Source of the DNA: an uncultured Pseudomonadales bacterium
GTDB taxonomy: Bacteria; Patescibacteriota; Microgenomatia; UBA1400; UBA1449
Length of the DNA: 64,000 bases
Assembly: GCA_964386355.1 (NCBI GenBank)
Contig: CAYLQQ010000001.1
Location: forward strand, 12,256 to 76,255
Reading direction: 5' to 3'
Shown here: positions 17,663 through 49,032 of the stretch, piece after piece
Layout: the number at the start of each line of letters is the position of its first letter
How positions within the stretch are numbered: the stretch's first letter is position 1
The notes under the pieces: model-generated
Databases searched by the model: none
Seen by the model: only the letters and a program-made list of their open reading frames with translations
Told to the model about the DNA's origin: nothing
Program-made: the position numbers and the translations under genes

Positions 17663-18361
17663 TTATCTTTTCACAACAAAGCAGTCTTCACATCTAGGTT
17701 CATATGATACTACAGATGATGGAGGAAGCAACTCAGGCTCATCAATTGTGGCTGCTTTACCATCAATAAGCCTTTGTGAATATTTATAGGCTTTTCTTCC
17801 ACACATTTGGCATGTAGCATACAAATTATATGTTTTGTTAGCTTTAAATGTTAATAAGTCGCTTAAAATAAATTCACCACCCTGACTCGTATATAATAAG
17901 CCCATTGCAATTAACCAACCTCCACGCTCAATAAATAGCTTAATTTCATACATTAAGTAGCTCTGTAAATTTGCCGGGGTAAATTGGATTTCATCTATAA
18001 AAATAACATCATTTTCGTGGAACATTTTTTCAATATCACTTTTATTTGAAAATGAAGTTATATGAAGAGACAAACCAGATCTTGATAGGATTTTATCCTT
18101 GGGAACATCTGCTCTATCTAATAAAGGCTGACTAAAGTAAGCTTTTCGATTGCCAATTTTTTGTTTTTTTAAGTTTTCGTTTAAATAAATTGCAACAATA
18201 GATTTACCACTCCTCTCAGGACCATATATAAAAATAATGCCCCCCTCGTCTATAGGCGATCCTGCAATCATATCAGTAATTTCGTCAGCAGTATTTTTTG
18301 CATTTTTTAATACAAAAGCATATATACCGTTAACTTTAGATTTAGGTTCAATTTGTTTCAT
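17663..18361 (-). CDS. tdk: thymidine kinase
   Basis: P-loop IYGPERSGKS, VIFIDEIQF in place of DEAQFF, and a C-terminal zinc ribbon CQMCG...CEDC. Confidence 0.8.
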   Translation of the reverse strand: MKQIEPKSKVNGIYAFVLKNAKNTADEITDMIAGSPIDEGGIIFIYGPERSGKSIVAIYLNENLKKQKIGNRKAYFSQPLLDRADVPKDKILSRSGLSLHITSFSNKSDIEKMFHENDVIFIDEIQFTPANLQSYLMYEIKLFIERGGWLIAMGLLYTSQGGEFILSDLLTFKANKTYNLYATCQMCGRKAYKYSQRLIDGKAATIDEPELLPPSSVVSYEPRCEDCFVVKR

Positions 18362-31709: not shown

Positions 31710-32168
31710 CTATTCCCCTATCGCCATCCGGTGCATTTCCAGCACTACGATATTCTCACCCATCTTGGCTATAGCGGCTTTAACTAAATCCCCGATAGTC
31801 TGTTTGGGATCACGGATGTAAGCCTGTTCAAGAAGTTCTTCAATAGTCTGAGCATTCATGGAAGCTGTCTGCATAGCAATCTCTTTACACAAAGCCTGGT
31901 ATTCTTCAGTGTTAGCAACAAAATCAGTTTCACAACCGATTTTAACCAGAGCTCCCAATCTTCCATTATTATGAATGTAGGCATAAACTAAACCATCACC
32001 GGTTTGCCTATCAGCTTTTTTGGCTGCTTTTGCCAAACCCTGTTCTACCAGCCAAGCCTTAGCTTTTTCCATATCGCCTTTCGCTTCTTCCAAAGCTTTT
32101 TTTACTTCCATAACCCCGGCTTTGGTTTCTGCCCTGAGTTTTTTGATTTGATCCATTGAAATTGACAT
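31710..32168 (-). CDS. tsf: elongation factor Ts (short form)
   Basis: N-terminal UBA-like motif (IKKLRAETKAGVMEVKKALEEA) and the classic position immediately downstream of rpsB. Only 152 aa. Confidence 0.8.
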   Translation of the reverse strand: MSISMDQIKKLRAETKAGVMEVKKALEEAKGDMEKAKAWLVEQGLAKAAKKADRQTGDGLVYAYIHNNGRLGALVKIGCETDFVANTEEYQALCKEIAMQTASMNAQTIEELLEQAYIRDPKQTIGDLVKAAIAKMGENIVVLEMHRMAIGE

Positions 32169-35924: not shown

Positions 35925-36755
35925 CTATTTAAGTAGATTGTTGATCTGTTGGTTATAATTGATAACAACCTTACGAGATTCCTCAGCAAAGTTATCTCTA
36001 TCAGAAGCAAAAATTACACTTCTAGAAGCATTGACTATAAAATTACGTCCGCGCAATGCGCGCAAGTCATTAATATCACCCCCCTGAGCTCCTAAACCAG
36101 CTATAAGAAAAAACTGATCAGTTGGTGATAGGTCAATGACCCGTTTAAGTACTTTAGGATACGTTAATGGGCATTCGATTAGAATATTTCCTGTTTTGTT
36201 CCAGAAATTGCATACAAGCTTTGTAACGTGTTCATATAGAAAATCACCATTTTTCAAAACCACATCCTGAACTTCACCTGCAGAAGGATTAGAATCGTGG
36301 CATAGTACAAACGCAGCTTTACCCTCGCAATGTAAAAATGGTTCTAATGTATCAAACCCAAACCAAGGGGTAATGGTAAATGCGTCAAAAAGTAGTTCGT
36401 CAAAAAGCTCTCTAGCTACCAATTCAGCACTTCGTTTCATTTCACTTCTCTTGCAATCAGCGATGATTCTAATTTCAGGATAGTTCTTTTTGATATATTC
36501 ATTTGTCTTTTTGAGGGTTTTAATTCCTTCTATTCCGTAACCTGCATAAAACGAGTTATTCATTTTATATAATGAGGCAATATCTGCAGTGCTATCAATG
36601 ATAGCTTTATTGAATATAAACAGTGCTTTTCCAAGAGTATTGTTCTTTTTTACAATGTCCGGTAGTTTTTCATAATCAGAATCTAGCCCAACACAGATAT
36701 GGGATTTTTTAATACTTATTTGATCGGCTACATGTTTTACAAAAAGTGTATTCAT
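35925..36755 (-). CDS. pyrF: orotidine 5'-phosphate decarboxylase (type 2)
   Basis: ICVGLD, IIADCKR (catalytic Lys) and a C-terminal GLGAQGG phosphate-binding motif. Confidence 0.8.
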   Translation of the reverse strand: MNTLFVKHVADQISIKKSHICVGLDSDYEKLPDIVKKNNTLGKALFIFNKAIIDSTADIASLYKMNNSFYAGYGIEGIKTLKKTNEYIKKNYPEIRIIADCKRSEMKRSAELVARELFDELLFDAFTITPWFGFDTLEPFLHCEGKAAFVLCHDSNPSAGEVQDVVLKNGDFLYEHVTKLVCNFWNKTGNILIECPLTYPKVLKRVIDLSPTDQFFLIAGLGAQGGDINDLRALRGRNFIVNASRSVIFASDRDNFAEESRKVVINYNQQINNLLK

Positions 36756-36771
36756 ATTTAGACATTAATAC

Positions 36772-38013
36772 TTAATAATCTAAGTATCTTCCAGAGTCTT
36801 TTTTAGCTTGAATATCGGGCACTGCTTGAGGTGCTAATTTATCCAAATCAGCTTGAATTGGATACGTCCCAACTATTTCTACTCCATTTGCTTCAAAAGC
36901 TGCAAATTTTGTTCTATTATTAGATGCGACTCTCGCAGCTTTTAATCCAGTAATTTGCCTCACAACAGATACTAATTCGTAGGTACGTAAATCTCCTGGT
37001 AATCCCAACTCAGACTCGCGTGCCGTTAAGAGGTCTGTTACTCCACGACCAGTGTATTGTGTCTGGGCAAATTTAAGTGCTAAACCAAGATCCATTCCTT
37101 CTTCATCACCATATATTATCATGCCTGAACCATGTTCTTGAATATACCCCAATGTCTGCTGTAATTGGAAATGGCAATCACATCCATTACCACCTAGTTC
37201 AGCTGTAATACAAGCAGAGTGATATCTAACAACTGGAATAGTGTTGGCAATATCTCCCACACTAAATACGTAATGTCGCTTAGGTCTCTTGTTATAGTCT
37301 CGAATTTCCGATTTTACAGGCTCTTCAATTACTCTTAATCTCGCCGGATTACCACCACGAAACGTTACCGGTATATCGGCAGTGAGAATAAAGGGGCTAC
37401 CCTTCGAACCTCTATATATTTCCAACGCCCTTGGTGAAGCCAGTAATTTATTTCTTGTTGAGCAAGGTCCTGCAAGAAATGGAGAATTATATCTAATATC
37501 AGAAACACCCATGCCCCTTAAAATATCGCGCATCGTTTGAGGACTATCCACTGGGGGTGTAAATGTATCCAGAGAAACATACATTGCTGCAGTAGGGTCA
37601 GTATTGTATAGGCTTTGGATAGCAGTTTCTTTTCTATCTCCACAGCCACAATCTACATCGAAATATCCACCTGGACATAGAGTATCCATTTCAACTAATG
37701 CTTCATTTCGCAACTCAGCTTGAGAACCATGGCTGTAAACAATATGCCGCAATGCACCATAATCAGGGCTATAACTGCCCAATAAATGCATAGCTTCCAA
37801 TTCTCCAGGTTGTGAAGCAACCATTTGCTCACCTCTTGCTAAATAAACCACTGAAGAAGATACCTTCCCAATCAATTCATAGCCTGGAAGTCGAGCAAGA
37901 CCGCTCCGCTGAGCTAACAGTGCTCGTTCGTTAACAACTGCAGCATCTAACAGTCCATTCGGAAATGTTGGCCATTCATACCTACTACCAATATTACCTA
38001 ATCTTTCTGCCAT
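36772..38013 (-). CDS. two-domain protein: a novel 220-aa N-terminal domain plus a GTP cyclohydrolase II (RibA)-like C-terminal domain with a non-canonical motif
   Basis: VRYHSACITAELGGNGCDCHFQLQQTLGYIQEHGSGMIIY parallels RibA VRVHSECLTGD...CDCGFQL...G.GVLLY, with the zinc Cys triad pattern retained. The downstream GDEEGMDLGL replaces the RibA QEGRGIGL motif. Confidence 0.55.
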   Translation of the reverse strand: MAERLGNIGSRYEWPTFPNGLLDAAVVNERALLAQRSGLARLPGYELIGKVSSSVVYLARGEQMVASQPGELEAMHLLGSYSPDYGALRHIVYSHGSQAELRNEALVEMDTLCPGGYFDVDCGCGDRKETAIQSLYNTDPTAAMYVSLDTFTPPVDSPQTMRDILRGMGVSDIRYNSPFLAGPCSTRNKLLASPRALEIYRGSKGSPFILTADIPVTFRGGNPARLRVIEEPVKSEIRDYNKRPKRHYVFSVGDIANTIPVVRYHSACITAELGGNGCDCHFQLQQTLGYIQEHGSGMIIYGDEEGMDLGLALKFAQTQYTGRGVTDLLTARESELGLPGDLRTYELVSVVRQITGLKAARVASNNRTKFAAFEANGVEIVGTYPIQADLDKLAPQAVPDIQAKKDSGRYLDY

Positions 38014-38019
38014 ACTTAC

Positions 38020-38044
38020 AAAAAACCAACCTTTCGGTTGGTTT
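38020..38044 (-). promoter_or_regulatory. hairpin CCAACC-GAAA-GGTTGG, then U6, then GUAAGU-AUG, abutting the start codon of the RibA-like gene
   Basis: Perfect 6-bp stem (38026-38031 and 38036-38041) with a GNRA-type loop. The T run is 6 nt from the ATG at 38013 and there is no SD. Confidence 0.5.
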
Positions 38045-38215
38045 AATTTACATTGTTAATATATGCTTTCCCTATACATTGTATACGTGTATGTTGTGAA
38101 CGACTTATCTGATCGGAGATTGGGACAGTTTTTATCATAAAAAAACCAGTTGCATATGCACACTGGGATTGTAGTATAGCAAATGTATATTGGATGTGTC
38201 AAACAGAGGAGATGT

Positions 38216-39733
38216 TTATATGACAATAGAATATCTATCAAAACCAAGAGTCTTATACAATTGTTCAGATCTGCGCCGGTACCTTTCTGCTCCATCCAGA
38301 TCATCTATGTCGCAAATATTAGTAAGCCTATCATCCATGAGGTTTATCTTGTAACCACGCTCTCTGGCTATTTCAATGCCAGCAATAATACCTGTGTCTC
38401 CATTATTTGGTAATTGTAGCCATTTCCGTTTTACTTTGTCAGATAAACCAGCTGCAAGCAATTTACCCTTATTCTGCTGGGTTTCCTGCATCAGACCTCC
38501 TGAAATATAAACTTCATCTATATTTAAAGGCAGACGCATCGCAATATGTCGTCCAAGCCCACAATAGACTGCTGCAGTAACTTCAATTTTGGTTTGAATA
38601 TCGGCAGATGCAAGCTCACTCCAGCTATATGGTTTTCCGGATTCATCATATATTCCTCCTTTACATCCTGGAAACATATCTTCGGGAATAAAAAAGAAGC
38701 GATTATTTGCAAGATTTACTACGCCTTCTCCAGCCCATTCGTCAATCTTAGCAAACCAATCATTAGGGTCTTTAAACGAATGTAATTCTTTTGTCCAAAG
38801 TGGAAATAAAATATCTGTATTTACACTAGCGCCATTTATTTTCTTGTGCTTGCCATAAACATTATAATCTGGGAAAAATGCTCGTGCATAATCATTTGTA
38901 CCATAGTAAGCAAGCTTACATATTGTATCTGCTTCGATATATACTGCCCGTTCAACCTCAAGACCGCTTGAGATAATCTCATGCTCTGCCATGACTTTCA
39001 TTTGATAGTCTCCTGCTCCTCTAGCAGTTTTGCCATTTGGCAGTTGAAGGACTCGGTGCTGCCTCATGTCATATTGATGAGGAAGTAACCCCATAGCCTC
39101 CATTACTTTTGGTAATATGTTATGTGCTACATCCCATCCATAATCTCCACCAATCCATGGTTTCCATTCATGTTCATGGAAGCCATATCTCAGTCCAGTT
39201 GCAAGACGAATATAAGCTGATATCGCTGGTTCAACATATAAATCACCAACAGTAAGCTTTGGAATACCACTCTCAGCAGCAAACTTATCTAAGTTAGATA
39301 TAACCGTAGCAAAGCGAAGAAGTGGGTTTGTTTTATCTTTCCAATCGTATACTACACCAAGTGGCTTGAGTCTCTCTTTAATATCTGGGCTGATCTTGAC
39401 CGGAAATACAGTTTTTGTTGTTAATCCAATCAAGGGTAGTCCGTATGAATCTGATATGATTAACTGCCTACGATAAGAACCGGTTACTCCAATATCTACA
39501 CCATATGCATCTCTAAGCCAAGGGACAATACTTTCAAAATTAATTGCAGCCACATCTCTATTCCACATATTAACTTTATTCCTAAATCCAGGTATTCTCT
39601 GCCTGCTGCCAACTGCCGTAACCCATTCAGCAGAATAAAAATCCAATTCGTCATCAAAGTTTACATAGCCTGCTGAACGACGATAATTTGTTGAACCAAC
39701 ATCAATAGTTCTAATAATATCTGGACTTACCAT
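38216..39733 (-). CDS. hypothetical protein, possibly an actin-fold (ASKHA) ATPase/kinase
   Basis: N-terminal IDVGSTNYR (phosphate-1-like DxGxT) and C-terminal VYISGGL / GDTGIIAG (adenosine-like and phosphate-2-like). This is pattern resemblance only. Confidence 0.35.
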   Translation of the reverse strand: MVSPDIIRTIDVGSTNYRRSAGYVNFDDELDFYSAEWVTAVGSRQRIPGFRNKVNMWNRDVAAINFESIVPWLRDAYGVDIGVTGSYRRQLIISDSYGLPLIGLTTKTVFPVKISPDIKERLKPLGVVYDWKDKTNPLLRFATVISNLDKFAAESGIPKLTVGDLYVEPAISAYIRLATGLRYGFHEHEWKPWIGGDYGWDVAHNILPKVMEAMGLLPHQYDMRQHRVLQLPNGKTARGAGDYQMKVMAEHEIISSGLEVERAVYIEADTICKLAYYGTNDYARAFFPDYNVYGKHKKINGASVNTDILFPLWTKELHSFKDPNDWFAKIDEWAGEGVVNLANNRFFFIPEDMFPGCKGGIYDESGKPYSWSELASADIQTKIEVTAAVYCGLGRHIAMRLPLNIDEVYISGGLMQETQQNKGKLLAAGLSDKVKRKWLQLPNNGDTGIIAGIEIARERGYKINLMDDRLTNICDIDDLDGAERYRRRSEQLYKTLGFDRYSIVI

Positions 39734-39758
39734 AAAAAAACCAACCCTATGGTTGGTA
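39734..39758 (-). promoter_or_regulatory. hairpin CCAACC-AUAG-GGUUGG, then U7, directly abutting the AUG of the ASKHA-like gene
   Basis: Same stem sequence as the element at 38020-38044. The T7 run is immediately followed by the ATG at 39733, with no SD. Confidence 0.5.
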
Positions 39759-39844: not shown

Positions 39845-40618
39845 TTATAGGCTTATGATCCCATTCAAAAGCTTCTTCATTTTTTCACTTTGAGCTTGAG
39901 CATTGGTTACCACATCTGTATGGTCATGTTTGACAAACGCGAGGTTAGTTACACATGACAGGCCTAGCACTTGTAATCCCAAACTGTTTGCCATGATCGT
40001 CTCAGGTACGGTGCTCATCCCGACACAGTCAGCTCCCAATTCAGCCAAAGCGCGCTTGTCTGCAAAACTCTCATAGTGGGGTCCGCGGACATACGCGTAT
40101 ATACCTTGCTGATATCTAATACTGTATTGTTTGTTTACCTCAATTGCTCTATTTTTCAATTCCGTATCAAATGGTTGAGACAGGTCTACAAAATGTGCTC
40201 CCTGAATCGGACTTTGGCAAAAAAGAGTGAGAATATCGTCTAAAATAACAATATCTCCCACCTGATATTCACCGTTTAAGCCGCCTGATGCAGAAGTTAT
40301 AACTACCTGTTTAACCCCTAATTGTGCGAATGCCTGAATAGGTCGGGTAACTTCCTCACTCGTATATCCTTCATAGGTGTGAAATCTTCCCGCCATGATC
40401 CAGACTGGCTTCCCTGTGAGTCTACCCAAAATAAGCTCCCCTTTGTGTCCAGCTACACCTGAGCCCTTGCCAAACATTTCATCAAACCCGAAGCGTTTTT
40501 CTACTTCCATATCTTGAACTACATCATTCCATCCAGAACCGAGAATCATGAGAGTTTCTGATCGATCGTCGAAAGAATGTAAGTTATGGATGATTTGTTC
40601 GACAGCTTGTATTGACAT
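39845..40618 (-). CDS. purine nucleoside phosphorylase (PNP/MTAP family)
   Basis: ILGSGWN...GHKGELILGRL.GKPVWIMAGRFHTYEGY...GMSTVPE matches the PNP family-2 consensus. A good SD (GGGAGGTAGGAG) is present. Confidence 0.8.
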   Translation of the reverse strand: MSIQAVEQIIHNLHSFDDRSETLMILGSGWNDVVQDMEVEKRFGFDEMFGKGSGVAGHKGELILGRLTGKPVWIMAGRFHTYEGYTSEEVTRPIQAFAQLGVKQVVITSASGGLNGEYQVGDIVILDDILTLFCQSPIQGAHFVDLSQPFDTELKNRAIEVNKQYSIRYQQGIYAYVRGPHYESFADKRALAELGADCVGMSTVPETIMANSLGLQVLGLSCVTNLAFVKHDHTDVVTNAQAQSEKMKKLLNGIISL

Positions 40619-40654: not shown

Positions 40655-41260
40655 CTAGAGGGAATTTATTACAAAATATTCGACTGCTTGCCTATCAAAG
40701 CCAAAGCTGATAAATCGCTCTTTGATCTGCTCATCTCCCACACCTTCGCCTTTCCATTTAGGAGTTAGCTGGTGAATTGTTTCTCTAACCTCATAGGGAA
40801 ACACAATCCAGTCACTTGTTTGTATGCCATAGTAATCCGGTTTTATCTTTGAGTGAGGTTTATAAAAAACCGTAGCAGTTTTGATGTGCTCAATTCCTTT
40901 AGCATGCAAGTAGTCTTTTACAAACAACAGTGACTCTCCTGTATCAGCCACGTCATCAAACAGAAGTATATTTTCGCCATTGATATCAACAGGTAACTGC
41001 TGATAGATGATAGGTTTTTCGCAGCGCTCATTCACTCCGCAGTAAAACTTGACCCCGATGCTGGCAACTTCTTTTACACCCAAAAGGTCAACGAGGGAAC
41101 GTGTCATCGGCCAACCACCCTTGGCAAGCGTAACAATACGATCTATCTTGATTCCGTCTGCCTGTATCTGTTTTGCAACCTCAAATATAAACTGCTGGAG
41201 CTGGTCCCAGGATGGAGTCAGATAGCTAATACCGTTGTGAGATGAGTTGGTCGGGTGCAT
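40655..41260 (-). CDS. purine phosphoribosyltransferase, xanthine-guanine PRT (Gpt)-like
   Basis: PRPP-binding motif ILLFDDVADTGESL and the Gpt-like C-terminal WIVFPYE. Confidence 0.75.
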   Translation of the reverse strand: MHPTNSSHNGISYLTPSWDQLQQFIFEVAKQIQADGIKIDRIVTLAKGGWPMTRSLVDLLGVKEVASIGVKFYCGVNERCEKPIIYQQLPVDINGENILLFDDVADTGESLLFVKDYLHAKGIEHIKTATVFYKPHSKIKPDYYGIQTSDWIVFPYEVRETIHQLTPKWKGEGVGDEQIKERFISFGFDRQAVEYFVINSL

Positions 41261-41329: not shown

Positions 41330-43531
41330 CTAATCGCCACCCTGACGCTTGGCAAAATTGTATGCAGCAGTTACGTAACCACGAGGTCGCGCTGATTTAT
41401 AGGGTGCAGTTAACGAGACAATTTCATCCCATAATATTTTCGAAGCTCTAGAATCAGCTGCTCTTGTATATACATCTTCTGGCAATCCTTTAGGTACATA
41501 CAGCCTACCATTTTTTATGATTAGCATAATCATTTGCTCAGGTGCTTGAAAAGCCAATCGGACTAACGCATTCTTAGCTCCCTCATCTAGTATTCGCAGC
41601 CACGCCCGCGGACCAATACCCCCAGCAATAGGTAGATAGTCATCTTGCCAATAGTTAGCTTGAGATGCATCCATCATTCTGGCTAAAACCATTCCATTAG
41701 ATACAGTCCAATTTCCTATTTGGGGATTAGTTACATCTGGGGCTTTTTTAACATCCTCTGGAGCATAGCCAACAGTGTCTCTAGCATATTTCTTGATTAT
41801 AGATCCTAAATCATTCAGCAACTCATCGCGCGCGCGACCAATCAAACCTAAATGATCAGCTAATGATTCAATAGTATTTCCACCAGCTTGCTCGTTTACC
41901 ATCTGCCTCATATCTCTCCAATCTAATCCTAATTTTTCCCAATATGATTCCCAATCAACATGCAACGGGTTCCACGTAACTACTTGTAGTTGCCTTAATG
42001 CATGGTGTCTACTAGCTGTTTGTTCATCTAGTATCCTAAGCACTAATTGCTTATATAACATTTGTTTATACGGATCTGGTTCAAGCCGATCAATATCTTG
42101 GGTGAGCATACCTAATCTCTCCTCTGGATTTGTAAGTAATCTTACTATGCTTACTGGTATTTGACGCTCAGTGTTGGGATTTTTAGTACCGGTGATTAGA
42201 AAATCTAGAGCTGCACCCCAGGAATCTACATCATGTAAAAAGACATGCATTTGCTTGTCTTGACAGGTATAGGCAATTTCAACTGATAAGCTTCCAAGCA
42301 AACCAGGATCAGCAGCCAAAAACCCTGCCCATAAACGCTCAATTGCCTGTCCTTCTGCTTTAAGTGCTTGTGCAACTGTAAATATAGTTAGCTCTTCTAT
42401 ATCCTGCCTTTCAAGTACTTGATCAATATTCACATCTTCCCAATCTCTAATAACCAGATTACCTGTTGAGTCAAAAACAAAATCTAGGTTTACCTCTTTA
42501 TATGGGGTTCTTGCATGAGCATTGCTTTCTTTTTCACCCTGAACAACGCGATTTGGTTTATCCCCATATACCACAGCTGCTTTGACTTTGAATACTGTCT
42601 GACCTTTTTGGTCGACAATATCTTGCAGCTCAAACCTCATGTTTCCCCCAAGGGTAGATGCCACTGCTTCACTGGCAAAGCCTTTCAGTGCGGTTAGCTC
42701 ATCAGATTTGTGCAGCACAAATACGTTCATGTGATATCCTGGATTACGTCTGATAATTTGCTCTGCCATTTTTTCTAAATATTCTTTTTGTAAGCTTGGT
42801 AAGATTTCAAAACCTGGCAGTGAGCTGCTAAATTCATCCCCTTCTCTGGGGCATAACCTGACATATAACCCATGGCCTTTTTGTGACTCCTCCTCAAAAA
42901 ACCCAGCTAAATTAGCAATTTCTCCTGTTACGGTTTCATAAATTTCTCCTCGCACTCTTGCCCCTGAAACACTTCTAATTGTCTCGCCTTGTTCTGTCAG
43001 AGCATCATTAGTTGCTATTACATCATTAATAACGTAATCAAGAAGCGGATCATGAGTTTGGGCGACAGTTCTCACGAGCCCTCGCTTAAGTACTTTAACG
43101 TGCAGATTAGGACTTTCTGGTGAGGGTAAATGGAGAAGCTCCCTAACCCTTGTCAATAACTCTTTTGGTCTGTTTAAGAGAGGGCCTTTTCTGGGATCTC
43201 TTACATCTATACTTGCTGGAGATGCAAATACAGTGTCAGGCTGTTCATCATCCAAGCTGACTTGCACACCTGCATTAGCCGGCATATCCGTATCTTCATA
43301 TATAGTAGTTTGTTTTCCTGAACCATTCCTACCATCTCCTCTGCCATCAGAAAAACTACCAACTACTGCTACATCGGAGGATGAATTATTACCAGAATAA
43401 ACATAGCGGGGTTCACCGCCAGACTCTCCAATGCAAACTAAAACAGCTTGATCAGGAGCAATTTGTAGATCAGCTCCCTCTTGTCCACTTGAAATAACAA
43501 CTTGTTCGGATACACGCTCTTGATGAGCCAT
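41330..43531 (-). CDS. large hypothetical protein (733 aa) with a G/S/D-rich N-terminal segment
   Basis: Long ORF with no recognisable catalytic motif. Its own extended -10 promoter and a palindromic operator-like site lie upstream. Confidence 0.5.
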   Translation of the reverse strand: MAHQERVSEQVVISSGQEGADLQIAPDQAVLVCIGESGGEPRYVYSGNNSSSDVAVVGSFSDGRGDGRNGSGKQTTIYEDTDMPANAGVQVSLDDEQPDTVFASPASIDVRDPRKGPLLNRPKELLTRVRELLHLPSPESPNLHVKVLKRGLVRTVAQTHDPLLDYVINDVIATNDALTEQGETIRSVSGARVRGEIYETVTGEIANLAGFFEEESQKGHGLYVRLCPREGDEFSSSLPGFEILPSLQKEYLEKMAEQIIRRNPGYHMNVFVLHKSDELTALKGFASEAVASTLGGNMRFELQDIVDQKGQTVFKVKAAVVYGDKPNRVVQGEKESNAHARTPYKEVNLDFVFDSTGNLVIRDWEDVNIDQVLERQDIEELTIFTVAQALKAEGQAIERLWAGFLAADPGLLGSLSVEIAYTCQDKQMHVFLHDVDSWGAALDFLITGTKNPNTERQIPVSIVRLLTNPEERLGMLTQDIDRLEPDPYKQMLYKQLVLRILDEQTASRHHALRQLQVVTWNPLHVDWESYWEKLGLDWRDMRQMVNEQAGGNTIESLADHLGLIGRARDELLNDLGSIIKKYARDTVGYAPEDVKKAPDVTNPQIGNWTVSNGMVLARMMDASQANYWQDDYLPIAGGIGPRAWLRILDEGAKNALVRLAFQAPEQMIMLIIKNGRLYVPKGLPEDVYTRAADSRASKILWDEIVSLTAPYKSARPRGYVTAAYNFAKRQGGD

Positions 43532-44409: not shown

Positions 44410-45720
44410 TCAATTTCTCTTTTTTCTTTTATGTTCAGCAACTCCTGTTGCTCTTTTAAACATTAATTGTAATCTATTAGCTAAACTTTCTTCCAGATCA
44501 TCTACATCGTCTCCAACAAAATCCGTATTAGCAAAACGCTGTACGACACAAGAGCCTCTTTTCTTAACGTCATAGTCAAGCTTATCTAGAGCAGCTTTGA
44601 TTACCCAATATCTATGTGGTGCCGACCCGAGCACGGCCATGTCTTTCATAAACATATATGCAGCATTTGCGGGATCTGCAGCCAAAAGATTATCCACAAG
44701 TAGAATATGTCTGCGTGCAATTGGATGCTCTGATTCAAACCCTCCGTTCGCAAAAGGGTTTATTTCCATTGATAAAATTTCTTCTGGTAACAACGGTGTC
44801 ATGAGAAGTTGGTGTCTTGTTCGAAATACAACTCCCTTAACAGGAGTATCCTCTTCAATAGGCCATATAACCCTTTTATTTGAACCATTCTTTTTGGGCT
44901 TTGATTTTTCTAGAGCAGGATCATATTCGGGCATTCTAAATAAACAGACAGCTTCACCGAAGTTTATATGAACCTCAAATAATGAAGTTGGATCTCTAAA
45001 AAGAGTTGAAAATAATAGTAGTTGTCTAGTTTTTGTCTCTTCTTTGCTTTCGCCTTCTTTAGGTTTATGAAGAGCGGTTATTTGACCTGTTAAAGGATCT
45101 TTGACTGTGACTATTACATCTCCACCTAAAGATAATACATATGGCGATCCAGGTGTATCAGCTACAATACCTGCTCTTTCATCTTGTAAGTTCCTAATAA
45201 GAGCTCGAATGTCCGTGCATCCCTGCATATCCCTAGCTTTAGAATATGCTACTACACCGGCGGCGGCATCAAAGTGATTCAATTCTGCACCCGGTTTACA
45301 TTTAGATCCTGCCACAAATACTCCCGGCGCTAAATAACCCATACCTGCAATTGTGTTTACCACCTTACTTGATTCTCTTTCTGAACGAGCTAGGACTGCT
45401 GCAACCTGGTTTCCTTGTAGTCTTTCACGAACCTGCTCCATCTCAGTACGTACCTTTGGGTCTTTCATTATATGTTCGAGAAAACCAGGTATACCTCGCG
45501 TAACTTCTCTTTTGAATTCATCTAAATCAAAATGTACTATGGGATGCATATCAATCATCTTTATATATGGATCAACTTTTTCTCTAATATACCTAGCTAG
45601 ATCTTTTTCAGGAGATGAACATTGTGCACCGTCAACTTGGGTATGACCGTTTCTATTCTCCCCGAACGCTACAGGTACTGAGTTGCATTGTAATAATGAT
45701 CGTAAGTCAACAGGTAACAT
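44410..45720 (-). CDS. hypothetical protein (436 aa)
   Basis: Long ORF with a basic C-terminal tail (HKRKKRN). No family recognised. Confidence 0.5.
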   Translation of the reverse strand: MLPVDLRSLLQCNSVPVAFGENRNGHTQVDGAQCSSPEKDLARYIREKVDPYIKMIDMHPIVHFDLDEFKREVTRGIPGFLEHIMKDPKVRTEMEQVRERLQGNQVAAVLARSERESSKVVNTIAGMGYLAPGVFVAGSKCKPGAELNHFDAAAGVVAYSKARDMQGCTDIRALIRNLQDERAGIVADTPGSPYVLSLGGDVIVTVKDPLTGQITALHKPKEGESKEETKTRQLLLFSTLFRDPTSLFEVHINFGEAVCLFRMPEYDPALEKSKPKKNGSNKRVIWPIEEDTPVKGVVFRTRHQLLMTPLLPEEILSMEINPFANGGFESEHPIARRHILLVDNLLAADPANAAYMFMKDMAVLGSAPHRYWVIKAALDKLDYDVKKRGSCVVQRFANTDFVGDDVDDLEESLANRLQLMFKRATGVAEHKRKKRN

Positions 45721-47595: not shown

Positions 47596-49032
47596 TTAGA
47601 GTAAGCCTTTTTGTTTGATCTGTTTTATTATCTGTTGATGAACTTCTTCGATAGTCTTTGAAGCATCTACGACAATCCAACGTCCGTGGTCGTTACGCTT
47701 TGCTAGTTTAAGGTAACCGGCACGTACTTTGTCGTGAAAATCTTTTTGTTCCAGATCCAAACGATTCATCACTTCGGAAGCACTCCTTCGAGCTAGACCT
47801 AGCTCTGACTTAATATCCAAAAGCATCGTCAGATCAGGATACAGGTTTTGTGTGGAAATATTATTCAGCTGTTCAATCAGGTCTTCTCCAAAGCCCCGTA
47901 CTATTCCTTGATAGACTACGGATGAGTCTCTTGTGCGGTCACACAAAACCACCTTACCTGTTTCTAGAGCTGGAATGATCAACTCCTGATAAATCTGTGC
48001 CCGAGCTGCCTGGAATAACAAAACTTCAGTCCCAAATGCCATACCAGTATTTTTTGTATGTAAGACAATTTCTCTGATTTGCTCAGAAATTGCCGTACCC
48101 CCTGGTTCTCTGGTGATAAGTACTTCTTTGCCTGTTTTGATTAACAAATCTGCCAATAGTTTTATCTGGACTGTTTTACCAGCCCCTTCTCCACCTTCAA
48201 ACGATATAAGAAGGCCTTTTTTATTAATTTTCTTTTGAGCAACATGATGTAAACCATTGATAGATGAAAAGTGGTGTTTTTCGCATTTGGGGAAATAGTT
48301 ATATGACACTTTACCAACCAGCATGAGCGCGTCAGAGTTAAACGATGCCGGCTTATCATCCAGATTAAGCTGGGTAAAGATAGCCGGATTCTGACATTGA
48401 GGTTCGCTACAGCGGGCAGAAAGCACCAGCATCAGGTCAGCGTGGCCAAATAAGGCTCTGTTGTTTTCCCATTGAATCCGTTTATATGAAAAATCAAGTC
48501 CGGCAATAACTAAAGTTATTCTTTTTTCATTAATAATTTTTATTAAAGATCGAAACTCGGAAGCATCAACCTTAGCTCTATCACAAAAGTGCCATTCATC
48601 AATTAACACAACTGTCCCTGGCTTGACATCGTGTAAATAAGTTTCTAGATCACTGAGGTCTTTATACACTTGAGCCGGGTATTCCTTACCGGAGCCCCAT
48701 GATTTTATGACAGCCTTATCACTCGTACGCTGCATATCCTTCTGATGTGTAAAGGCTTGTATACGTAATTTTTTTACTGAGGAAAGTAGTAGTAACAGGG
48801 CAGTTTTTCCCGATCCCATAGGCCCACAAATACCGATAATTCCCCCGTTTGGATGAGCCTCTATATAGTCGATTATCCGTTTAAGTGCCGGGAAGTGGTG
48901 TTGGTTATAGCCTTTCTGTTTACTTTCAGATGGGTCAGAATACCAGTAGGCTTTGCTTTTTCCAACTGTAAGTGTGGAAACAGGGTACGGAATAAGATCT
49001 TTGTTCTGGTCATTTACAGCTATTTCAGACAT
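47596..49032 (-). CDS. bifunctional fusion: N-terminal thymidine kinase-like domain plus C-terminal thymidylate kinase domain
   Basis: TK-like: GICGPMGSGKT, VLIDEWHFC, AGLDFSYKR, and a zinc ribbon CSEPQC...PKCEKHH. TMPK: LISFEGGEGAGKT, ITREPGGT, LLFQAARAQIY...VLCDRTRDSSVVYQG. Confidence 0.75.
   Translation of the reverse strand: MSEIAVNDQNKDLIPYPVSTLTVGKSKAYWYSDPSESKQKGYNQHHFPALKRIIDYIEAHPNGGIIGICGPMGSGKTALLLLLSSVKKLRIQAFTHQKDMQRTSDKAVIKSWGSGKEYPAQVYKDLSDLETYLHDVKPGTVVLIDEWHFCDRAKVDASEFRSLIKIINEKRITLVIAGLDFSYKRIQWENNRALFGHADLMLVLSARCSEPQCQNPAIFTQLNLDDKPASFNSDALMLVGKVSYNYFPKCEKHHFSSINGLHHVAQKKINKKGLLISFEGGEGAGKTVQIKLLADLLIKTGKEVLITREPGGTAISEQIREIVLHTKNTGMAFGTEVLLFQAARAQIYQELIIPALETGKVVLCDRTRDSSVVYQGIVRGFGEDLIEQLNNISTQNLYPDLTMLLDIKSELGLARRSASEVMNRLDLEQKDFHDKVRAGYLKLAKRNDHGRWIVVDASKTIEEVHQQIIKQIKQKGLL

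Follow-up and report, generated by a model that had tools for sequence, protein, structure and literature searches.

A GTP cyclohydrolase II-like protein with a putative internal duplication and a variant pyrF partner in bacteria of the candidate phyla radiation

Introduction

GTP cyclohydrolase II (GCH II) was long held to be a single-purpose riboflavin enzyme, until the UTP cyclohydrolase showed that its fold is reused for pyrimidine breakdown. The 64,000-nucleotide stretch of contig CAYLQQ010000001.1 analysed here (the window, also locus L001) contains a GCH II-like gene whose 413-aa product, named type A, has two domains, and the question raised by this locus is what such a protein does outside riboflavin synthesis. 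On the comparisons given below, type A is a putative third branch of the GCH II/UTP cyclohydrolase superfamily, set apart by a duplicated architecture, by changes in the active-site signature and by a conserved partner that is new, a variant of the orotidine 5'-monophosphate decarboxylase (OMPDC) gene pyrF. It would be the third functional branch of the fold, recognisable by its internal duplication and by a Gly-Met and Gln-Thr signature.

The type A gene and its C-terminal domain

The gene, its two domains and the main positions of the C-terminal half are the following:

36772..38013, minus strand: whole gene, an open reading frame (ORF) of 413 aa encoding the two-domain GCH II-like type A protein, with homologues over the full length
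37351..38013, minus strand: N-terminal domain, residues 1-221, a putative degenerate second GCH II-like domain (Foldseek and hhalign)
36862..37287, minus strand: predicted catalytic GCH II domain, residues 243-384 (Pfam GTP_cyclohydro2, PF00925, E 8e-22)
37174..37212, minus strand: zinc triad C268-x9-C278-D-C280 (CITAELGGNGCDC), with R263-x-H265-S266 just before it, all invariant and aligned to RibA
37093..37104, minus strand: loop E304-E-G306-M307, which replaces RibA Q91-E-G-R94 in the alignment
37060..37065, minus strand: Q317-T318, which replaces RibA A104-Y105 (catalytic Tyr) in the alignment
36985..36993, minus strand: D341-L-R343, equivalent to RibA D126-E-R128 (nucleophile for pyrophosphate release), with D341 and R343 invariant
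36775..36846, minus strand: C-terminal tail with invariant D400, A403, K404 and Y410 (alignment with the UTP cyclohydrolase tail)

The C-terminal part is truly RibA-like, at a level far above chance: it scores 77.9 bits against the PF00925 cut-off of 23.3, and the stretches HSACITAE, CDCHFQL and GSGMIIY, singled out in the preliminary description of this gene, are all found in it. The best solved relative of the 413-aa protein by sequence is E. coli RibA (2bz0, E 9e-15), and the AlphaFold2 (AF2) model, which for the full chain shows a predicted local distance difference test (pLDDT) of 74 and a predicted template modelling score (pTM) of 0.78, matches the same structure in Foldseek (E 1.5e-9, TMt 0.82).

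Residue conservation was read from an alignment of 15 sequences, in which the window protein shares 36-65% identity with the others. Invariant in all of them are R263, H265, S266 and C268, which align with RibA R49, H51, S52 and C54; C278-D279-C280, which align with C65-D-C67; D341 and R343, which align with D126 and R128; and N365, N366 and K369, by which the SNNxxK motif is retained. The spacing of the cysteines shows a minor deviation, CX9CXC with Ala at the Gly position versus CX2GX7CXC in RibA. This RibA motif, the role of the Zn(Cys)3 triad, the role of Arg128 and the homodimeric state of the enzyme are described in PMC10366380. The stretch TYEL, previously taken for an altered catalytic Tyr region, was misassigned: it sits in D341-L-R343-T-Y, which corresponds to RibA D126-E-R128-D-F, the conserved motif of the Arg128 nucleophile.

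Two RibA positions are replaced in all 15 members. The change from QEGRGIGL to GDEEGMDLGL, already pointed out from the window protein, is real: Gly306-Met307 is invariant, and Met307 takes the place of RibA Arg94, whereas Gly-Arg is retained at this loop in RibA, UrcA and the type B and type C proteins of the candidate phyla radiation (CPR) described below. The second is RibA Tyr105, whose place is taken by Thr318 inside an invariant Gln-Thr (AQTQY). In the work of Ren et al. 2005, Tyr105 of RibA is reportedly hydrogen-bonded to the zinc water and required for full conversion with formate release. Two other features lead towards UrcA: invariant R332 matches the Arg of the UrcA "AR" motif, and the C-terminal tail, which is missing from the aligned RibA chains of solved structure, is reached by the UrcA alignment up to profile position 406 (DieAKkrsg versus EIDAKMAAG). 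Type B proteins carry a comparable tail, HVQAKH..Y. As far as the alignment goes, the predicted catalytic apparatus of zinc and Arg is shown to be intact and under purifying selection, with two RibA-specific residues lost.

The same residues bear on another reading, in which only the Arg128-type half-reaction is left, nucleoside triphosphate (NTP) to monophosphate and pyrophosphate, and type A would be a house-cleaning nucleotide pyrophosphohydrolase acting, for example, on damaged purine NTPs. The family has lost its equivalents of Tyr105 and Arg94 but keeps Arg343, Asp341 and R-x-H-S in every member, and a Maf-type pyrophosphatase and many salvage genes are near. RibA itself has GTP-to-GMP and 8-oxo-(d)GTPase side activities. 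However, the zinc triad and the Asp between its second and third Cys are invariant in proteins that share no more than 37-65% identity, and since pyrophosphate release by RibA does not need zinc (PMC10366380), the invariant triad speaks against a role limited to that step. Such a role would also leave the strict linkage to the pyrF variant unexplained, and we consider it quite improbable.

The N-terminal domain

Two features of the N-terminal domain were taken from the 15-sequence alignment:

37642..37677, minus strand: Cys motif C113-x8-C122-x-C124 (CPGGYFDVDCGC)
37462..37464, minus strand: Cys184, invariant

The N-terminal 220 aa had been described as having no recognisable motif, which does not hold: H90, C113, C124 and C184 occur in all 15 sequences and C122 in 14 of them, giving a C-x8-C-x-C cluster in what appears to be a degenerate GCH II-like domain. 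The N-domain profile gave no matches against Pfam and PDB sequences, and a RibB-like or other known N-domain was rejected on this result. In the full-chain AF2 model the order of strands and helices around the Cys motif mirrors that around the catalytic triad. The domain modelled alone (pLDDT 58) was compared by Foldseek with 350,542 PDB chains, and the five best are all of the GCH II family (4i14 with 2e-4 and 2bz0 with 1.3e-3, then 7ej3 and 7eev). Alignment of the N-half and C-half profiles of the 15 sequences by hhalign gives P 5.3e-4 over 125 columns, versus P 0.46 for the reversed-profile control, and pairs H90 with H247, C113 with C268, C122 with C278 and C124 with C280. With seven sequences only, hhalign gives E 0.15, and BLASTP of the two halves against each other shows nothing significant.

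We conclude from profiles and models that the type A protein is a putative tandem duplication of the GCH II fold with a degenerate N-terminal copy. This copy would have lost the nucleotide-binding and catalytic residues and kept the Cys cluster, probably as a structural metal site of four Cys, with Cys184 as a possible fourth ligand. RibA works as a homodimer, and in type A a single chain probably supplies both halves of an intramolecular pseudo-dimer, one of them catalytic and the other degenerate.

Comparison with RibA, RibBA and UrcA

RibA (EC 3.5.4.25; PF00925; 2bz0/2bz1, 4rl4, 4i14) and type A have in common the fold of the C-terminal half, the zinc Cys triad, the phosphate motif R-x-H-S, D-x-R and (S/T)NN..K. 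Besides the Met, the Thr and the Cys spacing, type A differs from RibA in the additional, degenerate copy of the fold at its N-terminus, in its C-terminal tail and in having no riboflavin gene context. It scores below the cut-offs of the NCBIfam RibA subfamily model NF001591 (84.8 versus 148) and of TIGR00505 (71.1 versus 205.85), and the RibBA models match the C-terminal half only, also below their cut-offs. A RibBA identity was rejected, PF00926 (the DHBP synthase domain) being without a match in 13 N-domains even at E up to 10. In a neighbour-joining tree of C-domains, the 15 members form a single clade beside three bona fide RibAs and do not group tightly with them, with identities of 31-34% to RibA and 28% to UrcA. 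The preliminary description had proposed a repurposed GCH II-type ring-opening module with a non-riboflavin role, and this proposal agrees with the scores below the cut-offs, the lack of Arg94 and Tyr105 equivalents, the separate clade and the lack of rib genes near the 11 loci compared below.

The best sequence and fold matches being RibA, and the length being like that of RibBA fusions, type A could also be a genuine divergent RibA whose companion rib genes are elsewhere in the genome. Nevertheless, it is below every cut-off of these RibA, RibBA and domain models, its N-domain is not a DHBP synthase (neither PF00926 nor a PDB sequence matches), Tyr105 and Arg94 are replaced in all members of a separate C-domain clade, none of the 11 loci shows a rib gene, and the ribA of a lineage would have to be far commoner than this family is. 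We regard this reading as very improbable.

UrcA and the yeast Urc1p (PRK07198; 7eev, 7ej3) are a non-riboflavin, nucleotide-catabolic precedent for the GCH II fold, and resemble type A in having about 420 aa with an N-terminal extension of about 230 aa before the GCH II-type domain. The UTP cyclohydrolase work is that of Zhang et al., ACS Catal 2021, known here as cited in PMC12507026, and the URC pathway is outlined in PMC7530994 and PMC12507026. Both UrcA and type A show the "AR" motif and the D..AK tail, but UrcA keeps the loop Arg and has C-T-C..Y, whereas type A has Met and the C-D-C..Q of RibA. The UrcA-type model PRK07198 gives 25.9 bits versus a cut-off of 403, and with the family profile E. 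coli RibA reaches 103 bits, UTP cyclohydrolase (7ej3) 48. No sequence similarity to 7eev or 7ej3 was detected with the N-domain profile, and Foldseek of the whole type A model against UTP cyclohydrolase aligns 276 columns only (TMq 0.38). The gene partners differ as well: those of UrcA are uracil phosphoribosyltransferase (UPRT), URC4 and urea amidolyase, and that of type A is the pyrF variant.

A Streptomyces coelicolor GCH II paralogue, in which the Tyr is changed to Met, reportedly halts at a formamidopyrimidine product, as a GTP cyclohydrolase III would give. This paralogue reportedly resembles type A in having lost the catalytic Tyr with the zinc site and the Arg nucleophile intact, and differs in being single-domain and in having Met instead of Thr. 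It is not known to have a pyrF-type partner.

Family size and distribution

The type A family is tiny and was seen mainly in CPR bacteria. A word-indexed search of 5.8e9 proteins gave seven homologues over the full length, and an exhaustive phmmer search with the N-terminal 221 aa against 1.84e9 cluster representatives gave 12 clusters: 11 contain proteins of 413-426 aa with identical layout and one is a 148-aa fragment, so among these matches the N-domain is never alone nor in another architecture. A metagenome scan contributed only two near-identical loci, and a genome scan contributed three. Databases name the members hypothetical or "GCH II domain-containing" proteins; the cluster member PIP53180.1, with the UniRef name "GTP cyclohydrolase II domain-containing protein", is labelled Candidatus Beckwithbacteria. 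The literature search found no paper on the type A protein, and none tying GCH II to CPR bacteria either.

Some metagenome-assembled genomes with family members (L006, L007, L008) are labelled "uncultured Gammaproteobacteria" or "Pseudomonadales", and their gene content and the Beckwithbacteria cluster member point to CPR/Patescibacteria. These labels are probably loose.

Genomic context and the pyrF-like partner

The neighbours of the type A gene that are first needed here are the following:

35925..36755, minus strand: OMPDC paralogue, 16 nt downstream of the type A gene (pyrF_sub2, 185.3 bits)
39845-40618, minus strand: purine nucleoside phosphorylase (NF006054, 249 bits versus a cut-off of 218)
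40655-41260, minus strand: phosphoribosyltransferase (PRTase) similar to hypoxanthine-guanine phosphoribosyltransferase (HGPRT; weak match, HGPRTase 52.6 bits)

Eleven independent type A loci, the window and L003-L007 and L009-L013, were compared by all-against-all BLAST of their ORFs. The pyrF-like gene is the only one common to nearly all of them: it is found in 10 of the 11 within three genes of the type A gene, in eight of them directly next to it. L013 alone is without it; this contig has a length of 3.2 kb, and its close relative L007 has the pyrF-like gene two genes further on. The kinases (thymidine/thymidylate kinase and Gmk) and the methyltransferase first thought to work with the window protein are absent from the other loci, and the conserved partner is the pyrF-like gene instead. 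The 505-aa ORF upstream of the type A gene was also rejected as a conserved partner: it is absent elsewhere, and the genes found upstream in L003 and L004 show no homology to it.

The window partner scores above the cut-off of pyrF_sub2 (TIGR02127; 185.3 bits versus 110.6), as do the partners of L005 and L004 and the variants of L014 and L015. Its catalytic motif is D-C-K-R-S-E-M instead of D-x-K-x-x-D-I. All six partners aligned show D-x-K-R-x-E-(M/I), with Glu for the second Asp of the catalytic tetrad, and among the 119 homologues closest to the partner the Glu is common to all 115 with a readable motif, whereas the solved type-2 OMPDCs read KRSDI or KRGDI. The source names on several of these homologues are Beckwith-, Roizman- and Woesebacteria and other Patescibacteria. 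The variant gene was located at 35925-36755 (minus strand) in the window, L014:10001-10828, L015:10001-10840, L016:225-1049 and L017:8001-8846. At least two genomes have, besides the variant, a canonical pyrF with KRGDIG: that of L014 (Candidatus Roizmanbacteria, CP065004.1) lies with pyrD and pyrK in the same 20-kb region, and that of L017 adjoins a pyrE-like PRTase. Since the variant coexists with canonical pyrF, the partner is taken to be a paralogue and not the housekeeping OMPDC, and the CPR clade of DxKxxE "pyrF" genes, annotated everywhere as OMP decarboxylase, is by its motif probably a neofunctionalised paralogue.

Riboflavin genes are absent nearby, as first stated for the window. 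Neither ribB, ribH nor ribE is present among the window ORFs scanned, which lie at about 13.5-63.9 kb (the ORFs in 1-13.4 kb and a few short ones being left out), and no rib genes are present among the neighbours of the 10 other type A loci, a result that applies to these neighbourhoods and not to whole genomes. The sole RibD_C match, a 172-aa protein, is most simply a dihydrofolate reductase (DHFR): it matches DHFR_1 equally and lies about 1.6 kb from thyA, in divergent orientation.

Other neighbours vary between loci; besides the pyrF variant, the conserved partners in other lineages are a PfkB kinase and phosphatases. A HAD-like protein, a CodA-like amidohydrolase (PRK06886) and a uridine kinase (282 bits, the cut-off being 180) are encoded nearby in L007, L013 and L014. 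A HAD-like neighbour of 263 aa matches nothing in NCBIfam or PDB. L003, L004 and L015 have His_Phos_1 phosphatases. The purine nucleoside phosphorylase and the HGPRT-like PRTase are found together at the window, L005, L006 and L009 only.

This context bears on a further reading, a UrcA-like pyrimidine cyclohydrolase, which would act like Urc1p/UrcA in the URC pathway and open the uracil ring in UTP or UMP. The uridine nucleotide would come from the OMPDC paralogue and uridine kinase, and the ribose phosphate would be recovered for CPR fermentation through a phosphatase and a PfkB ribokinase-like enzyme. It is consistent with the pyrF-like partner at 10 of the 11 loci, in which the Ser, Gln and Arg positions of solved OMPDCs are retained, with the uridine kinase, the CodA-like amidohydrolase and PfkB among the neighbours, with the His_Phos_1 or HAD-like phosphatases close by, and with the length, N-terminal extra domain, "AR" motif and D..AK tail that recall 7eev and 7ej3. 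The C-domain, however, is far closer to RibA in profile score and identity and retains the RibA-type C-D-C..Q, the PRK07198 score is far below its cut-off, and none of the URC context (UPRT, URC4/DUF1688, urea amidolyase) is present at any type A locus examined. The partner is, moreover, a paralogue of the housekeeping OMPDC, so that its production of UMP is putative. On balance a UrcA-like function is unlikely, although it is the likeliest of the alternative readings.

The wider module, traced by starting from the variant pyrF, contains two further kinds of GCH II-like protein. Type B is encoded at L014:12415-13599 (minus strand, 394 aa) and at L016:1891-3120 (minus strand, 409 aa), and type C at L017:6501-7994 (plus strand, 497 aa). 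Both are 24-28% identical to type A, show a two-domain layout and stand beside the variant pyrF and a PfkB kinase; Tyr105 is replaced by Glu or Leu, and the loop Arg is kept. The N-domain profile of type A does not match their N-terminal regions, from which the Cys motif is missing. The type C module of L017 adjoins an adenosine deaminase gene, IMPDH-family genes and a GMP synthase gene, and in L015 the cluster is present without a GCH-like gene. Because the flanks of L007 and L014 are about 96% identical while their cyclohydrolases are 23% identical, with HAD-like genes at 47%, a replacement of the cassette is suggested.

Proposed function

We put at about even chances that type A is a catalytically competent, zinc-dependent nucleotide cyclohydrolase that is not RibA, acts on a GTP-like substrate and yields a non-canonical product, probably of the formamidopyrimidine type. 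A GTP-like substrate is slightly favoured over a uridine-type one, as judged from the protein sequences and the gene context, because the C-domain is closest to RibA, C-D-C..Q is retained, and a purine context surrounds the gene in the window (guanosine/inosine phosphorylase, HGPRT-like PRTase and guanylate kinase) and the type C module in L017. The product is probably not the canonical riboflavin precursor, since the catalytic Tyr is Thr and the Arg of QEGRG is Met. In the proposed mechanism a nucleoside triphosphate, most likely GTP or another purine NTP, would be bound; Arg343 would attack its alpha-phosphate and release pyrophosphate, by the chemistry of RibA; and zinc-bound water would then open the base ring. 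The resulting ring-opened (formamido)pyrimidine ribotide, or a similar compound, would be handed to the co-encoded DxKxxE OMPDC paralogue and, in other lineages, then to a PfkB kinase and a phosphatase, as parts of a CPR-specific module of nucleotide conversion or salvage.

Several points weigh against this purine-type cyclohydrolase of duplicated fold. The universal partner is a pyrimidine-type enzyme; the neighbours in L007, L013 and L014 are a uridine kinase and a cytosine-deaminase-like amidohydrolase; and the "AR" motif (R332) and the D..AK tail, common with UTP cyclohydrolase, point to a uridine nucleotide. With the Arg of QEGRG lost, the ligand could be something other than a triphosphate, and the step from a lost Tyr to a formamidopyrimidine product is drawn from what is reported for the S. 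coelicolor paralogue. As to the N-domain, the profile P value behind the duplication is modest (5e-4) and the model compared by Foldseek is of low confidence (pLDDT 58), and the pseudo-dimer and the structural zinc are putative. Such probability as is left over by the readings given here goes to a non-catalytic or otherwise unforeseen role.

More broadly, and as a tentative proposal that we hold to be rather doubtful, the GCH II-like enzyme, the DxKxxE OMPDC paralogue and PfkB, with or without a phosphatase, may make up an undescribed CPR pathway in which a base is opened hydrolytically and the phosphoribosyl-pyrimidine is processed by a neofunctionalised OMPDC barrel. Very different GCH II-like proteins would have entered the cyclohydrolase slot of this pathway on at least three occasions, and type A would be the fused pseudo-dimer among them, one of its zinc sites being catalytic and the other structural. 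The pathway could serve a purine-to-pyrimidine-type conversion, or a ring opening that frees ribose phosphate for energy metabolism. CPR bacteria live largely by scavenging nucleotides; the strict pairing with an OMPDC paralogue flags an unannotated step in their nucleotide metabolism, and reconstructions of CPR metabolism may contain mistaken "ribA" and "pyrF" calls.

Upstream region

Two features precede the type A gene in the window:

38173..38202, minus strand: promoter-like site TTGACA-18-TATACT, TG-extended, 11 of 12 matches (consensus match only)
38023..38044, minus strand: hairpin AAACCAACC-GAAA-GGTTGGTTT with a U-run, downstream of the promoter-like site and ending 8 nt before the ATG

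At the equivalent place L005, L006, L009 and L010 show TTGACA-17-TAyAAT. The stem AACCAACC-N4-GGTTGGTT, a perfect palindrome followed by a U-run, precedes the GCH-like gene and the 505-aa ORF at 6-20 nt from their start codons: its copies are at 38023-38044 and 39739-39758 (before the 505-aa ORF) in the window, and at L005:3949-3968, L006:1864-1883, L009:4838-4857 and L010:213-232. The position of the promoter is kept and the hairpin stem is invariant in five loci whose proteins are only 65% identical, while the flanks diverge. Unrelated GC-rich hairpins with U-runs are directly before the ATG in L003, L004, L012 and L017. No Rfam family matches the leader region, and folding prediction gives it no exceptional stability (z = -1.46). 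The hairpin before the ATG could be a terminator, an attenuator or an operator.

Other genes of the window

The window has about 40% GC and looks like part of a CPR genome rich in nucleotide salvage. It contains genes for a thymidine kinase-thymidylate kinase fusion, Gmk, Maf, purine nucleoside phosphorylase, a PRTase, thymidylate synthase, DHFR, ribonucleotide reductase, a deoxyribosyltransferase-like (NDT-like) protein, PfkB and a VirD4/TraG-like protein. The kinase fusion has 478 aa (47596-49032, minus strand), and a second, separate thymidine kinase is encoded at 17663-18361 (minus strand).

The 505-aa ORF (38216-39733, minus strand), between the purine nucleoside phosphorylase and GCH-like genes, is found in this lineage only and is without matches in Pfam, NCBIfam and PDB; read by eye, its IDVGSTNYR (close to the N-terminus) and YISGGL (close to the C-terminus) resemble motifs of ASKHA-type sugar/nucleoside kinases. 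In the same strand block, the ORFs at 41330-43531 (minus strand, 733 aa) and 44410-45720 (minus strand, 436 aa) have no Pfam or NCBIfam match, and a 642-aa homologue of the former precedes the PRTase gene in L005, L006 and L009. The elongation factor Ts gene (31710-32168, minus strand) encodes just 152 aa, about half the usual bacterial length, and matches the first 75 of the 204 positions of Pfam EF_TS.

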